The notes under the pieces were generated by a model. That model saw only the letters and a list, made by a program, of their open reading frames with translations. It did not search any database and was not told the DNA's origin. A program made the translations under genes and the position numbers. A stretch of 64,000 nt of DNA, taken from the NCBI RefSeq assembly GCF_054482595.1, contig NZ_CM137008.1. One strand, written 5' to 3'. The number at the start of each line of letters is the position of its first letter. The stretch's first letter is position 1. Below are positions 1-8,898 of this stretch, piece by piece.

Positions 1-190
1 CATTTTCTGCGCCGCCACAAATTTTGGCTGCATCAACAGTTTTCTGCTGTCCAATTCCCGAAACGAAGAAATGATGGGTGATGGTTTCCTTTGGTGTTAC
101 TGCTGTCGGTTTGTTTCCAACAGTAAACGTCTGTTGAGCACATCCTGTAATAAGCATTGCCAGAGCGGCAGAAAACAACATTTTTTTCAT
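1..190 (-). CDS. bor: Bor-family outer-membrane lipoprotein (lambda Bor/Iss-like); N-terminal part only, C-terminus outside window
   Basis: Reverse-strand translation from ATG at 188..190 reads MKKMLFSAALAMLITGCAQQTFTVGNKPTAVTPKETITHHFFVSGIGQQKTVDAAKICGGAEN, lipobox ITGC, matches lambda Bor as recalled. Confidence 0.8.
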   Translation of the reverse strand, partial: MKKMLFSAALAMLITGCAQQTFTVGNKPTAVTPKETITHHFFVSGIGQQKTVDAAKICGGAEN

Positions 191-714
191 CTTATTATCC
201 TGCATTGTTAAAAACGGCAGAATCCTATGTGACAACAATTAAACGATAGTTAAATGGATTGATGAAAATTAAAACTATATAGGTGTACGGTCAGACTATT
301 GGAGGTAGTCAGGATTTGAATGTCAGTCTGTTGTCGGCATTCTGGCAATGCAATTTGGATAAAGCGGGGATTAAAAAGATAGAGGCGAGCCGGTCAGGTA
401 GAAATGAATCAGGCTCAAATTGAAGCGGAAAAGGTCTGTGGCACAAACTGATGCTGCCATAATTACAGCCTGATGACTTGTGGAATGAAACATGTTGAAC
501 CTCCTTAATTGATGTGATTCGAGTGAGGAAGGCATTCTGTCCCTCTATAGTGTCCATTAAATCAAACGGGAAATTTGTCTCATGCGTGAGACAAGTCTCT
601 CCATTAGTGAGTTGTATTGATTGCGACTCTTCAAAGAATCCATTACTGCGTTGATGAAAAAGGTTTACTACGAATGAAGGCAGCTATTTCGCTGGTTTCT
701 TCATTGGAGTACAT

Positions 715-1065
715 ATGCCCCCACGAACCCCAAAAGCCTGCCGTGTTCGCGGCTGCCGCTTTACAACCACGGACCCTTCAGGCTACTGCGAAAGCCACAA
801 AAGCGAAGGCTGGAAGCAATACAAACCTGGACAATCCCGTCATCAGCGCGGCTACGGTTCGAAGTGGGACAGTATCCGCGCGCGTGTCCTGAAGCGTGAC
901 AAAGGCCTGTGTCAGTTATGTCTGCGTGCTGGTGTGGTGCGTGAGGCGAAGACCGTTGACCACATCATCCCTAAATCGCATGGCGGCACTGATGTCGACA
1001 GTAATCTGCAGAGTTTGTGCTGGCCGTGTCATAAGGCGAAGACGGCCCGTGAACGGCTGAAGTAA
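715..1065 (+). CDS. Phage HNH endonuclease (packaging-associated)
   Basis: 116 aa ORF with Cys pairs and DHIIPKSHGG...N motif (His-Me finger); sits immediately upstream of terminase genes as in HK97-like phages. Confidence 0.85.
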   Translation: MPPRTPKACRVRGCRFTTTDPSGYCESHKSEGWKQYKPGQSRHQRGYGSKWDSIRARVLKRDKGLCQLCLRAGVVREAKTVDHIIPKSHGGTDVDSNLQSLCWPCHKAKTARERLK

Positions 1066-5492: not shown

Positions 5493-6698
5493 ATGGCGGT
5501 TGATATTAAAGATGTCGAACAGGTCGCGCAGGAGCTGCAGCAGAAGTTTGACGACTTCAAAGCAAAGAACGACAAGCGCGTGGATGCGATTGAGCAGGAA
5601 AAAGGCAAGCTTGCCGGGCAGGTGGAAACCCTGAACGGGAAACTCAGCGAGCTGGAAAATCTCAAAAGCGACCTTGAAAAAGAGCTGCTTGAGCTGAAAC
5701 GTCCGGCAGGTGGTGCGCAAAATAAACTGGCCACCGAGCATAAAGAAGCGTTTGTGGGCTTCCTGCGTAAAGGCCGTGAAGACGGTCTGCGCGATCTGGA
5801 GCGTAAGGCATTGCAGGTGGGCACCGATGAAGACGGTGGCTACGCCGTGCCGGAAGCGCTGGATCGCAACATTCTCAACCTGCTGAAAGATGAAGTGGTG
5901 ATGCGTCAGGAAGCCACGGTGATCACCGTTGGCGGTTCCGACTACAAAAAACTGGTGAATCTGGGCGGCACGGCTTCCGGATGGGTGGGGGAAACGGATA
6001 CGCGATCCCAGACTGCCACCTCCAGACTGGAGCTGATTGAACCTCTCATGGGGGAAATCTACGGCAACCCGCAGGCTACCCAGAAAATGCTGGACGATGC
6101 CTTCTTCAACGTGGAAGCATGGATCAACAGCGAGCTGGCAACCGAATTTGCCGAACAGGAAGAAATTGCCTTTACCACCGGCGATGGTACCAAGAAGCCG
6201 AAAGGGTTCCTGGCGTATGAATCCACGGATGAAACCGATAAGGTCCGGGCGTTCGGCAAACTTCAGCATATTGTATCCGGCGACGCGACTGCGGTGACCG
6301 CTGATGCCATTATCAAACTGATTTACACGCTGCGAAAGGCACACCGCACCGGCGCGAAGTTCATGATGAACAACAACAGCCTGTTTGCCATCCGTTTGCT
6401 GAAAGACACCGAGGGTAACTATCTGTGGCGTCCGGGGCTGGAACTGGGGCAGCCGTCCTCTCTGGCGGGTTACGGTATCGCTGAAAACGAACAGATGCCG
6501 GATATCGCCGCTGATGCGAAAGCCATTGCATTTGGTAACTTCAAACGGGGTTACACCATCGTTGACCGTATCGGCACCCGCATTCTGCGTGACCCGTACA
6601 CCAATAAACCGTTTGTCGGTTTTTATACCACCAAGCGCACCGGCGGGATGCTGGTCGATTCGCAGGCCATCAAACTGCTGAAGATTGCAGCGGCGTAA
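5493..6698 (+). CDS. Major capsid protein (HK97 fold)
   Basis: 401 aa ORF with aggag SD, N-terminal coiled-coil-like delta domain (EQVAQELQQKFDDFKAKNDKRV...) typical of HK97-type capsid precursors. Confidence 0.9.
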   Translation: MAVDIKDVEQVAQELQQKFDDFKAKNDKRVDAIEQEKGKLAGQVETLNGKLSELENLKSDLEKELLELKRPAGGAQNKLATEHKEAFVGFLRKGREDGLRDLERKALQVGTDEDGGYAVPEALDRNILNLLKDEVVMRQEATVITVGGSDYKKLVNLGGTASGWVGETDTRSQTATSRLELIEPLMGEIYGNPQATQKMLDDAFFNVEAWINSELATEFAEQEEIAFTTGDGTKKPKGFLAYESTDETDKVRAFGKLQHIVSGDATAVTADAIIKLIYTLRKAHRTGAKFMMNNNSLFAIRLLKDTEGNYLWRPGLELGQPSSLAGYGIAENEQMPDIAADAKAIAFGNFKRGYTIVDRIGTRILRDPYTNKPFVGFYTTKRTGGMLVDSQAIKLLKIAAA

Positions 6699-6747: not shown

Positions 6748-6948
6748 ATGATCCTGAAACAAGATCTGAAATGGTCACCGGACGGTATGCGTGTTGAGGT
6801 CATTCGGGCCGGTGAGTATGACGACGGGGCGCTGCCTGCCCGGGTGCAGGAGATTGCACTTCAGGCCGGGTTAGCAGAGCGCGGAACCAGTGCAAAAAGC
6901 AGTAAAGCGGCAAAAGAGAAAAAAGCCACGACCAGTAAAGAGGGCTGA
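6748..6948 (+). CDS. Small hypothetical head-module protein
   Basis: 66 aa ORF in gene-dense head module, Lys-rich C-terminus. Confidence 0.4.
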   Translation: MILKQDLKWSPDGMRVEVIRAGEYDDGALPARVQEIALQAGLAERGTSAKSSKAAKEKKATTSKEG

Positions 6949-6950
6949 GT

Positions 6951-7274
6951 ATGCTTCTGACAATAGAAGAGATTAAAGCCCAACTCCGGCTGGATGAGGA
7001 TTTCGATACTGATGACCGTCATCTGCAACTGCTGGCCTGTGCGGCGCAAAAGCGGACGGAAACGTATCTGAACCGGAAGCTCTATGCACCGGATGAAACC
7101 ATTCCGGACAGCGATCCGGACGGACTACACCTGCCGGATGATATTCGTCTGGGGATGCTGATGCTTATCAGCCATTTTTACGAAAACCGCTCGTCGGTTA
7201 CGGAAGTGGAGAAACTCGACATGCCGCAGAGTTTTGGCTGGCTTGTCAGCCCGTACAGGTACTTTCCGCAATGA
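6951..7274 (+). CDS. Head-tail connector protein (gp6-like)
   Basis: 107 aa ORF after capsid gene; size, acidic character and position. Confidence 0.65.
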   Translation: MLLTIEEIKAQLRLDEDFDTDDRHLQLLACAAQKRTETYLNRKLYAPDETIPDSDPDGLHLPDDIRLGMLMLISHFYENRSSVTEVEKLDMPQSFGWLVSPYRYFPQ

Positions 7275-8162: not shown

Positions 8163-8719
8163 AACTGACGCCTGTTATTGCTGCACTGCGTGCCCGCTGT
8201 CCGTATTTTGAAAACCGGGTTGCAGGCGCGGCCCAGTTCAAAAATCTGCCGGAGGTCGGAAAGCTGAAACTCCCGGCGGCATATGTTGTACCGGGTGATG
8301 ATTCTCCGGGAGAAAACAAAAGCCAGACCGACTACTGGCAGGAGCTGAAAGAGGGTTTCTCCGTGGTTGTCATACTGAGTAACGGGCGTGATGAGCGCGG
8401 TCAGTTTGCCTCGTATGATGTGGTGGACGATGTCCGGCAGATGCTCTTTAAGGCTCTGCTGGGCTGGAACCCGGAGGCGTGCGGTAACCCGATTACCTAT
8501 GACGGCGGCACGCTGCTGGATCTGAATCGTCATGAGCTGATTTATCAGTTCGATTTTTCGGTCATCAGCGAGCTGACTGAAGACGATACCCGCCAGCAGG
8601 ATGATCTGAACAGTCTGGATGAACTGCAAACGCTGGCGATTGATGTTGATTATCTCGATCCCGGTAACGGGCCTGACGGCGATATCGAACATCACACCGA
8701 AATAACCCTTCCTTCCTGA
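8159..8719 (+). CDS. Tail completion/terminator-like protein (Mu gp37-like)
   Basis: 186 aa ORF immediately upstream of sheath gene. Confidence 0.5.
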   Translation: MKLTPVIAALRARCPYFENRVAGAAQFKNLPEVGKLKLPAAYVVPGDDSPGENKSQTDYWQELKEGFSVVVILSNGRDERGQFASYDVVDDVRQMLFKALLGWNPEACGNPITYDGGTLLDLNRHELIYQFDFSVISELTEDDTRQQDDLNSLDELQTLAIDVDYLDPGNGPDGDIEHHTEITLPS

Positions 8720-8727
8720 GAATCTTC

Positions 8728-8898
8728 ATGTTTGTGAAACCTGTTAAAGGGCGGTCAGTGCCTGACCCTGCCCGCGGTGACCTTTTGCCCACCGAAGGGC
8801 GAAATGTTGACGAGAACAACTACTGGCTGCGCCGTGAAGCAGCGGGTGATATCCGGCGCGTGAATAAAAAGGTGAACACCGATGACGATAAGCTTTAA
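8728..8898 (+). CDS. Small conserved-looking protein preceding the sheath gene (56 aa)
   Basis: Not in ORF track (below 60 aa); read by eye: MFVKPVKGRSVPDPARGDLLPTEGRNVDENNYWLRREAAGDIRRVNKKVNTDDDKL, ends overlapping sheath start. Confidence 0.4.
   Translation: MFVKPVKGRSVPDPARGDLLPTEGRNVDENNYWLRREAAGDIRRVNKKVNTDDDKL

Follow-up and report, generated by a model that had tools for sequence, protein, structure and literature searches.

In the 64,000-nucleotide stretch of contig NZ_CM137008.1 (assembly GCF_054482595.1; hereafter the window), the spacer between the gene bor and a gene for an HNH endonuclease contains a hairpin with the arms TTGTCTCA and TGAGACAA. This hairpin lies in a cassette of about 130 bp which, judging from homology and architecture, very probably consists of sequences of virulent phages of the T7 supergroup. 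On the minus strand, the predicted order of the elements is a T7-like promoter, the stem-loop, a promoter of the K1E/SP6 type, a leader resembling that of the phage promoter phi4.3 with a Shine-Dalgarno sequence, the ATG at 493 and an open reading frame. The best explanation overall, which we favour with some reserve, is that the hairpin is the stem-loop module of a cassette read by the RNA polymerase of an infecting phage. An earlier note on this DNA had presented the hairpin as a stand-alone site upstream of the HNH gene; it appears instead to be one module of a cassette that also includes the T7-like and the K1E/SP6-type promoters.

On the minus strand, the sequence 622..601 (AATCAATACAACTCACTAATGG) is identical at 22 of 22 positions to the phi4.3 promoter of the Berlinvirus-type phages (285P, PhiV-1, BSP161, the Yersinia phages of the Berlin group and others). 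This complete identity was observed in 85 records of named T7-like phages, where the promoter precedes gene 4.3. The variant of Shigella phage SfIV (AATACGACTCACTA) is an exact stretch of 14 nucleotides of the T7 consensus. Promoters of the types CACTAATGGGAGA and TAATACGACTCACTAATGGGAGA, ending with CACTAATGG(G)AGA, are present in several copies in T7-like contigs of 38-41 kb, and we regard this ending as the mark of a genuine promoter class. The match to the consensus from -17 to +2 places the sequence of the window among the putative promoters of the T7 group (Berlinvirus type). The promoter core, read on the plus strand, is also the first copy of a direct repeat (TCCATTAGTGAGTTG / TCCATTACTGCGTTG) at 600-614 and 639-653. 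A third promoter was considered at the decayed repeat (653..639) and rejected, only 5 of the 11 upstream positions fitting the T7-like consensus.

The second promoter-like sequence (ATTTAATGGACACTATAGAGGGA) has its +1 position 57 nucleotides from that of the first. The consensus of the SP6/K1E-type promoters was taken as ATTTA-NNN-GACACTATAGAAG (-17 to +4), and the sequence of the window falls within it as a candidate promoter of this type; 19 of 23 positions match the K1E consensus and the core GACACTATAGA is intact. The commonest variant of the cassette family (ATTTACTGGACACTATAGAAGGA) is identical at 23 of 23 positions to the K1E promoter located at 13925. In SfIV this sequence is of the SP6 type (ATTTAGGTGACACT), with GGT at -12 to -10 but a T at -3. 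No other sequence resembling the T7-group or the SP6-group promoter class was found in the 64-kb window.

The leader downstream is homologous to the phi4.3 leader of Berlinvirus (GGGACAGA...TTCC.CACT...ATCA.AT...TTAAGGAG...ATGTTT), with an alignment score of 18 against -4.4 +/- 3.6 for shuffled sequences (maximum 8.5). It contains a perfect Shine-Dalgarno sequence, AAGGAGG, at 506..500, 6 nucleotides ahead of the ATG. From this homology, the cassette resembles the phi4.3 unit of promoter, leader and start codon, with the hairpin and the SP6-type promoter inserted just after +2. A pairing of the Shine-Dalgarno sequence with CCUUCC is possible in the folded leader; at a z-score of only -0.45, no structure is claimed.

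The hairpin has counterparts in the SP6-like phages, where a palindrome surfaced directly upstream of some promoters during a scan for the SP6 type. The whole genome of K1E (L294) contains 8 copies of GTCTCAC-NN-GTKAGAC (at 632, 6805, 6987, 8005, 9573, 10750, 15901 and 32586) and the whole genome of SP6 (L208 and L209) contains 9 copies of GTCYAAC-NN-GTTRGAC (at 493, 6093, 6264, 7071, 8547, 9383, 14255, 17752 and 30569). We have defined the SP6-group stem-loop by the 16-bp core GTC-YM-AC-NN-GT-KR-GAC with a half-site specific to the lineage. Most of the copies in both genomes are located just after a stop codon. The K1E copies at 6805 and 15901 lie 2-15 nucleotides ahead of promoters and the copy at 6987 lies ahead of a degenerate promoter-like sequence, while the SP6 copies at 6093 and 14255 precede promoters. 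The spacing between palindrome and promoter is 2-16 nucleotides in the phages; in the prophage, 12 nucleotides separate the end of the hairpin from the -17 position of the SP6-type promoter, which has the same orientation.

Read on the minus strand, the hairpin of the window (TTGTCTCA-CGCA-TGAGACAA) is a variant of the K1E palindrome GTCTCAC-NN-GTGAGAC, and the one loss in its core GTCTCACGCATGAGAC relative to the phage cores is that of the innermost C-G pair. The family variants GTCTCACACGTGAGAC and GTCCAACACGTTGGAC correspond to the K1E-type and to the SP6-type core. Both its core and its position on the sense strand upstream of an SP6-type promoter lead us to classify the prophage hairpin as an SP6-group stem-loop. 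Since the prophage variants reproduce the cores of the two lineages, import by recombination with attacking phages is a simpler origin than stepwise mutation, and we infer that the variants were acquired in this way. Three K1E copies fold into hairpins of two tiers, with about 24 bp in all and an asymmetric internal loop between the tiers (z-scores from -4.9 to -7.9). Where K1E and SP6 have orthologous sites, the flanks differ by compensatory changes; GGGCUU...AGGCUC in K1E, for instance, corresponds to GGGUUU...AAACUC in SP6. A scan of the K1E genome with Rfam returned only the known group I intron, and no description of the repeated hairpins of SP6 and K1-5 was found in the searchable literature. 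Other promoters of SP6-like phages are preceded by different conserved hairpins, such as ATACATAGCTTTATGTAT and AGAAATACCATTTCT.

On sequence alone, the hairpin at 575-594 is unremarkable. The earlier note had reported a perfect inverted repeat with arms of 8 bp and a loop of 4 nucleotides, and its coordinates and letters are exact. Counting arms of 8 bp or more with loops of 3 to 8 nucleotides, nested hits included, the 64-kb window contains 29 perfect hairpins against a mean of 7.4 in dinucleotide shuffles; the exact pattern of this hairpin has a chance expectation of 0.01 occurrences. The arms can be extended imperfectly to 13 nucleotides each (570-582/587-599, 85%). Because 8-bp hairpins are not rare by chance in 64 kb, the significance of this one has to rest on its relatives.

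The arms of the relatives differ and are complementary in each case: TTGTCTCA / TGAGACAA in the window, CTTGTCCAAC / GTTGGACAAG in the commonest variant of the family, GTCCAACG / CGTTGGAC in SfIV and CTTGCCTCACG / CGTGAGGCAAG in the second copy of the cassette in E. coli XH993. The covariation was evaluated on an alignment of 13 distinct variants, on which a helix of 15 pairs was imposed, with 500 shuffles and slid controls. Standard pairs are formed in 94.9% of the cells (40-55% in the slid controls), three base pairs are changed on both sides, and none of the 500 shuffles reached the observed covariation score. As the relatives keep the pairing through compensatory changes, the hairpin is more than a product of chance, and the conservation in homologous prophages that the earlier note had proposed to check is thereby confirmed. 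The mean pairwise diversity, calculated on 40 unique sequences of the family, is lowest in the T7-like promoter (0.012), followed by the leader with the Shine-Dalgarno sequence (0.028), the SP6-type promoter (0.053, with the variation concentrated at -12 to -10), the N-terminal half of the open reading frame (0.081), the HNH coding sequence (0.097) and the hairpin (0.121), in which pairing is nonetheless kept. The promoter and the leader are less variable than the adjoining HNH gene, which argues for a function.

The hairpin is not an intrinsic terminator, as already suggested from the sequence of the site. There is no T-run on either strand (the plus side reads on as GTCTCTCC and the minus side as ATTTCCCG), and a terminator scan of positions 1-1400 gave no site at 575-594. 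A scan of the same region with Rfam 15 at a permissive threshold gave only matches at chance level, none of them at the hairpin.

The RNA predicted from the +1 of the T7-like promoter (GGAGAGG...) folds from nucleotide 1 or 2 into a stem-loop of 15 pairs. This extended stem comprises 12 pairs in the variant of the window and 15 in the commonest variant, and it is longer than the phage copies adjacent to promoters. Among the T7-type phages, a stem-loop after the promoter is exemplified by GGGAGAGACAC...GTCCTCCC. The fold of 51 nucleotides of the window has an energy of -18.4 kcal/mol on the minus strand (z-score -4.6) and of -15.9 kcal/mol on the plus strand (z-score -3.0). The outer seven pairs are rich in G·U; read as minus-strand RNA they form in 94.5% of the cells, and read as plus-strand RNA in only 64.8%. 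In 11 of 14 variants, the fold of the minus strand has the greater stability. Since the G·U pairing is confined to the minus strand, it favours an RNA structure of that strand. The relevant strand is probably the minus one, antisense to the HNH gene and to the late operon, and we put at about even odds that the hairpin forms the 5' stem-loop of a minus-strand RNA.

An RNA element on the opposite strand, such as a processing or stability signal of the prophage late transcript upstream of the HNH and terminase genes, is very unlikely. The late operon is expected to read through on the plus strand, where the hairpin also has a stable fold, and in variant L005 the single mismatch becomes a wobble pair only when the plus strand is read. 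These points are outweighed by the deficit of outer-stem pairing on the plus strand, by the greater stability of the minus strand in most variants, by the orientation of the hairpin, which fits the sense strand of the source phages, and by the lack of the hairpin in most prophages that have the same HNH gene.

The earlier note had proposed a protein-binding site or an RNA structural element. The second part of this proposal is the better supported, by the 15-pair helix and by the G·U pairs found on the minus strand only, and the DNA palindrome is less favoured. As a binding site for a dimeric protein (a factor of the SP6-like phages or of the host), the palindrome would be an operator or a decoy beside the promoter, and we consider this role improbable. 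Some variants are palindromic up to the centre (GTCCAACGCGTTGGAC, CTTGCCTCACGCGTGAGGCAAG), and each phage lineage uses one half-site at all its 8-9 loci (GTCTCAC in K1E, GTCYAAC in SP6), a concerted pattern that is what a sequence-specific factor acting in trans would produce. Against such a role, in the phages the promoter lies at no fixed distance (2 to 16 nucleotides), and most phage copies are located away from promoters, after stop codons, with long stems whose G·U pairs exist on the sense strand only. The outer stem of the prophage hairpin also depends on G·U pairs, and we know of no candidate protein that binds this palindrome.

The spacer between bor and the HNH gene (524 bp) is a mosaic. 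From 190 to about 305 it matches the bor regions of phages lambda, 21 and 434, and from 304 on the match is with SfIV and with complete E. coli genomes, about 620 out of 5426 (~11%). In the SfIV-type prophages the region 304-423 is the 3' end of a spanin gene of the LysC/Rz1 type, of which only a remnant is present in the window, and the true intergenic unit is 424-714. The description of the spacer as gene-free does not hold, since it combines this remnant with a conserved cassette (424-714) that includes a possible minus-strand open reading frame of 40 codons. Only a handful of 80 viral contigs with an HNH gene at least 94% identical contain the cassette; the others display 40-odd unrelated sequences upstream of this gene, often a plain terminator. 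Because most phages with such an HNH gene are without the cassette, the cassette is an insertion. Its gene neighbourhood is that of a lambdoid prophage (SfIV/HK97-like), in which it occupies the moron slot that follows the lysis genes and precedes the HNH/terminase genes. The coordinates of the elements are given in Table 1.

Table 1. Elements of the cassette and neighbouring genes in the window
Feature	Position	Strand	Remarks
T7-group promoter-like sequence	597..622	-	-17 = C619, +1 = G602
Extended stem-loop GGAGAGAC-TTGTCTCA-CGCA-TGAGACAA-ATTTCCC	568..602	-	Begins at the +1 of the T7-like transcript
Core inverted repeat TTGTCTCA-TGCG-TGAGACAA	575..594		Perfect arms of 8 bp, loop of 4 nucleotides
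SP6/K1E-type promoter-like sequence	540..562	-	-17 = A562, +1 = G545
Leader	494..545	-	52 nucleotides; homologous to the Berlinvirus phi4.3 leader
40-codon open reading frame MFHSTSHQAVIMAASVCATDLFRFNLSLIHFYLTGSPLSF	371..493	-	Open in all variants
3' remnant of SfIV-type LysC/Rz1-like spanin gene	304..423	+	Left end of the segment travelling with the cassette and the HNH gene
HK97 gp74-type HNH endonuclease gene	715..1065	+	Right neighbour of the cassette, followed by the small and large terminase subunits
bor/iss, 5' part	1..190	-	Starts at 190 and extends beyond the window; on the same strand as the cassette and downstream of it in this mosaic

A scan of positions 1-1400 gave no sigma-70-like promoter on either strand. 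A candidate built by hand, with the extended -10 sequence TGATTTAAT and a -35 within the hairpin, was rejected as the T of the -10 is lost in most variants. The 64-kb window contains no open reading frame of at least 650 amino acids, and so no gene for a single-subunit RNA polymerase of the phage type. From these two results, the cassette should be silent in the lysogen and would be transcribed only after infection by a T7-like or SP6-like phage, whose RNA polymerase it would use. At the head of the T7-type transcript, the hairpin would form a 5'-terminal stem-loop and could act as a stability or processing signal, like those of the mRNAs of the T7 group. At the DNA level it would stand just upstream of the SP6-type promoter, as in K1E and SP6. 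The output of the cassette may be a small peptide, or massive initiation of transcription and translation.

Whether this output serves a defence triggered by infection (abortive infection or interference) can be proposed only tentatively. The cassette could then be a minimal infection sensor, a suggestion that we also regard as speculative, in which the promoters of two unrelated polymerase lineages of virulent phages are joined by a stem-loop of phage origin and in which abortive infection or interference protects the lysogens. Such a unit would stay unexpressed until a lytic podophage has produced its polymerase, and the variants of the unit would be updated by recombination with the attackers. 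Among the possible purposes we rank infection-triggered defence first, followed in this order by a recombination scar, a protein-binding palindrome, an element of the plus-strand late mRNA and a satellite-like exploitation.

In this last alternative, the RNA polymerase of the infecting phage would be used for transcription of the prophage, or to prime a phage-type DNA replication at the locus. The T7 origins depend on promoters and the primary origin (phi1.1A/B) lies just after the T7 RNA polymerase gene. SP6 and K1E each have a palindrome and a promoter just after the RNA polymerase gene, which is in line with this alternative. It is nevertheless highly improbable, as transcription leads away from the packaging genes and runs antisense to the lysis genes, no T7-like packaging signal was identified, and the prophage that harbours the cassette is complete, a lambdoid phage with a life cycle of its own.

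Several observations weigh against a functional cassette read by an infecting phage. Positions of the promoters that are expected to matter are changed in some variants (-3 A>T in SfIV, -2 T>C in L083 and -5 C>G in L086), and the T7-like promoter of L042 carries the change -6 A>G at a position of the same kind. The A at -12 of the SP6-type promoter of the window is absent from the phage contigs examined. The two strands of the window variant fold about equally well. The low diversity of the promoter and of the leader could reflect a recent horizontal spread rather than selection. The strict architecture with two promoters is limited to approximately one family of E. coli and Shigella, together with one other prophage (L169), among viral contigs and metagenomes. 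The open reading frame inherits only its first two codons from the phage gene 4.3, and the 17 codons at its C-terminal end run antisense to the spanin gene or its remnant. Between the SfIV type and the window type, nearly all differences in its N-terminal half are nonsynonymous, and this half evolves as if it were neutral. No Pfam or PHROG family was detected for the peptide, whose relatives are only "hypothetical" proteins of E. coli, and its hydrophobicity is modest (best hydropathy window of 17 amino acids 1.35, against 2.35 for TisB and 3.0 for HokB). From these features the open reading frame looks accidental, and its status as a real gene is uncertain. A type I toxin-antitoxin locus was considered for this open reading frame led by a Shine-Dalgarno sequence, and was rejected on the modest hydropathy, the lack of a family and the lack of a sigma-70-like promoter on either strand.

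Alternatively, the cassette could be a functionless recombination scar, in which a phi4.3 promoter and leader and a hairpin-promoter of the SP6 group had been captured in failed infections and had persisted and spread with the HNH/terminase module. The make-up of the open reading frame, two initial codons of gene 4.3 fused to an unrelated sequence, the lack of purifying selection in the N-terminal half of the open reading frame, the mutated core positions of the promoters in several variants and the nearly monophyletic strict architecture are all in accordance with a scar. So is the truncated copy of L232 (IMGVR_UViG_2778261354_000001, minus strand), where the homology ends exactly at +4 of the SP6-type promoter (CACTATAGAAG / TAAGCGTGCAG at the junction), a rearrangement breakpoint at the start of transcription. 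We nevertheless consider a scar unlikely. The T7-like promoter and the leader with its Shine-Dalgarno sequence are 3-8 times less diverse than the HNH coding sequence, compensatory changes keep the pairing of a stem that is longer than the phage copies, the cassette is present in ~11% of the complete E. coli genomes, and the design recurs in an independent prophage, which has two such cassettes in the corresponding slot.

This independent lambdoid prophage (L169; IMGVR_UViG_2938147185_000003, ~8560-9500) contains its two cassettes in the interval from the lysis genes to the gene of the small terminase subunit, with an Rz-like remnant between them; they lie on the antisense strand and have other small open reading frames. 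One of them is composed of a T7-type promoter (ATTAACGACTCACTATAGGGGGA), the hairpin GTCCAACACGTTGGAC, an SP6-type promoter, a Shine-Dalgarno sequence and an open reading frame of 39 codons (MFMPEMISLATALVELAKPIVEVICHWLKLEINKRYGVN), the peptide of which is amphipathic. No match to the L169 cassette was found in E. coli genomes and the cassette part is unmatched in the phage collection; we attribute L169 to an enterobacterial prophage from a species other than E. coli. A search for the dual-promoter cassette with one genome per species gave no match, and the pattern of hairpin plus promoter gave in the same set a single match, judged to be due to chance. The metagenomes gave 23 matches, of which 22 belong to the E. 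coli family already described and the remaining one resembles a chance match.

The arrangement recalls several known systems. Tandem clusters of T7-like promoters in enterobacterial genomes were reportedly described by Chen and Schneider in 2006, who are said to have proposed that the islands bearing them are satellites of T7-like phages. The 12 clusters, of two or three promoters within about 150 bp, are reported to lie in integrase-bearing islands of 4-13 kb with flanking direct repeats, in which the promoters drive 2-5 phage-related genes. Like them, the cassette presents two heterotypic promoters for single-subunit RNA polymerases within 150 bp and no cognate polymerase gene nearby. Unlike these islands, it is an insert of ~130 bp in a full lambdoid prophage, antisense to the late operon; it is followed by an open reading frame of at most 40 codons and then by antisense lysis genes or bor, and it includes a stem-loop of the SP6 group. 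Nothing relevant was found in the later literature on such tandem promoters.

With the palindromes of SP6, K1E and K1-5 (Zindervirus, Vectrevirus) the prophage hairpin shares the core (GTCTCAC-NN-GTGAGAC or GTCYAAC-NN-GTTGGAC), the AA of the right flank and the orientation towards the promoter. It differs from them by a stem lengthened by new complementarity of the flanks, which starts at the +1 of the T7-like promoter, whereas the phage copies mostly follow a stop codon and some of them form the top of a two-tier hairpin of ~24 bp. The mRNAs of T7 contain ribonuclease III signals (for example R1.1), in which an asymmetric internal loop parts an upper from a lower stem, and 5' stem-loops such as the phi10 leader. 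The phage palindromes are likewise intergenic hairpins of the sense strand, and three of those of K1E have the same two stems parted by an asymmetric internal loop. The predicted transcript of the cassette is also similar to the T7-type transcripts, which begin with a GGGAGA... stem-loop. There is no sequence homology with the ribonuclease III sites of T7, and the prophage stem (12-15 bp, against ~24 bp for the two-tier stems of K1E) is below the length of a canonical substrate of this enzyme, which spans about two helical turns of double-stranded RNA.

The PeSL ("promoter-early stem-loop") elements, reportedly described by Arbiol et al. in 2010, are said to be mobile regulatory cassettes of T4-type phages. 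They resemble the present cassette by the repeated association of a promoter and a stem-loop flanking small variable open reading frames, and by an apparent modular exchange through recombination. They differ in the phage group (T4-type), in the promoters (sigma-70 early promoters) and in sequence, and the module described here is now found in a temperate prophage. A suicide cassette under a phage-inducible promoter is said to have been engineered in Lactococcus by Djordjevic et al. in 1997. As in such infection-triggered designs, a phage-specific promoter precedes a host-encoded payload, here a small open reading frame with a strong ribosome-binding site; unlike in suicide or type I toxin designs, there is no antitoxin RNA, the peptide is not clearly membrane-active, and the system is natural and not engineered. 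Finally, the morons of lambdoid phages (bor and lom, from the work of Hendrix and colleagues) are expressed in the prophage state, having both a sigma-70 promoter and a terminator. The cassette is comparable to them as an autonomous insert between genes of the late operon, patchily distributed among relatives and situated in the slot of bor after the lysis genes. Unlike classical morons, it is without sigma-70 promoter and terminator and has promoters for polymerases of virulent phages instead.

If the cassette is indeed transcribed by the RNA polymerase of an infecting T7-like or SP6-like phage, it would represent a natural use, by a host or prophage, of a virulent phage's own promoter specificity as a trigger, a logic so far mainly engineered, and lysogens differing by 130 bp would provide a cheap system in which it can be tested. 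Phages K1E/K1-5, SP6 and those of the 285P type are therapeutic candidates against K1 E. coli and Salmonella, and the cassette is carried by the ~11% of complete E. coli genomes mentioned above. Whatever the function, the SP6-like phages hold a lineage-specific palindromic stem-loop in 8-9 copies per genome. Short regulatory modules have also passed between virulent podophages and lambdoid prophages, which bears on the exchange between gene pools that are supposed to be separate.

Some copies of the cassette are rearranged or have altered neighbours. In E. coli XH993 (L084, NZ_CP019361, 1201-1909), the cassette and the first ~60 nucleotides of the HNH gene are duplicated in tandem; the two copies differ in the hairpin, one containing a U·G wobble and the other being fully compensated (CTTGCCTCACG/CGTGAGGCAAG). 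In O157:H7 strains (L087, NZ_CP038309, 1617-2817), the HNH gene adjacent to the cassette is truncated by IS1203. The HNH gene is also a pseudogene in L086 / FDAARGOS_1300, where it adjoins a different type of terminase. An additional hypothetical gene of 64 amino acids with a terminator-like hairpin is located between the cassette and the HNH gene in L085 (NZ_OZ392464, 1695-1889), from which the slot appears to be a hotspot for small inserts.

In the window, the spanin remnant is situated downstream of a complete lambda-type Rz gene and of bor, and a recombination seam with the lambda-like bor segment is found at ~304-309. A perfect inverted repeat of 11 nucleotides (GCATTGCCAGA / TCTGGCAATGC) has one arm inside the bor coding sequence (154-164) and the other in the spanin remnant (341-351), and may be due to chance. 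Between the HNH gene and the gene of the small terminase subunit, the region 1092-1150 contains a G+C-rich inverted repeat (GGGGCGGG...CCCGCCCC) followed by TTTTTTT, which probably belongs to the cos/terminator region of the HK97-like packaging module.

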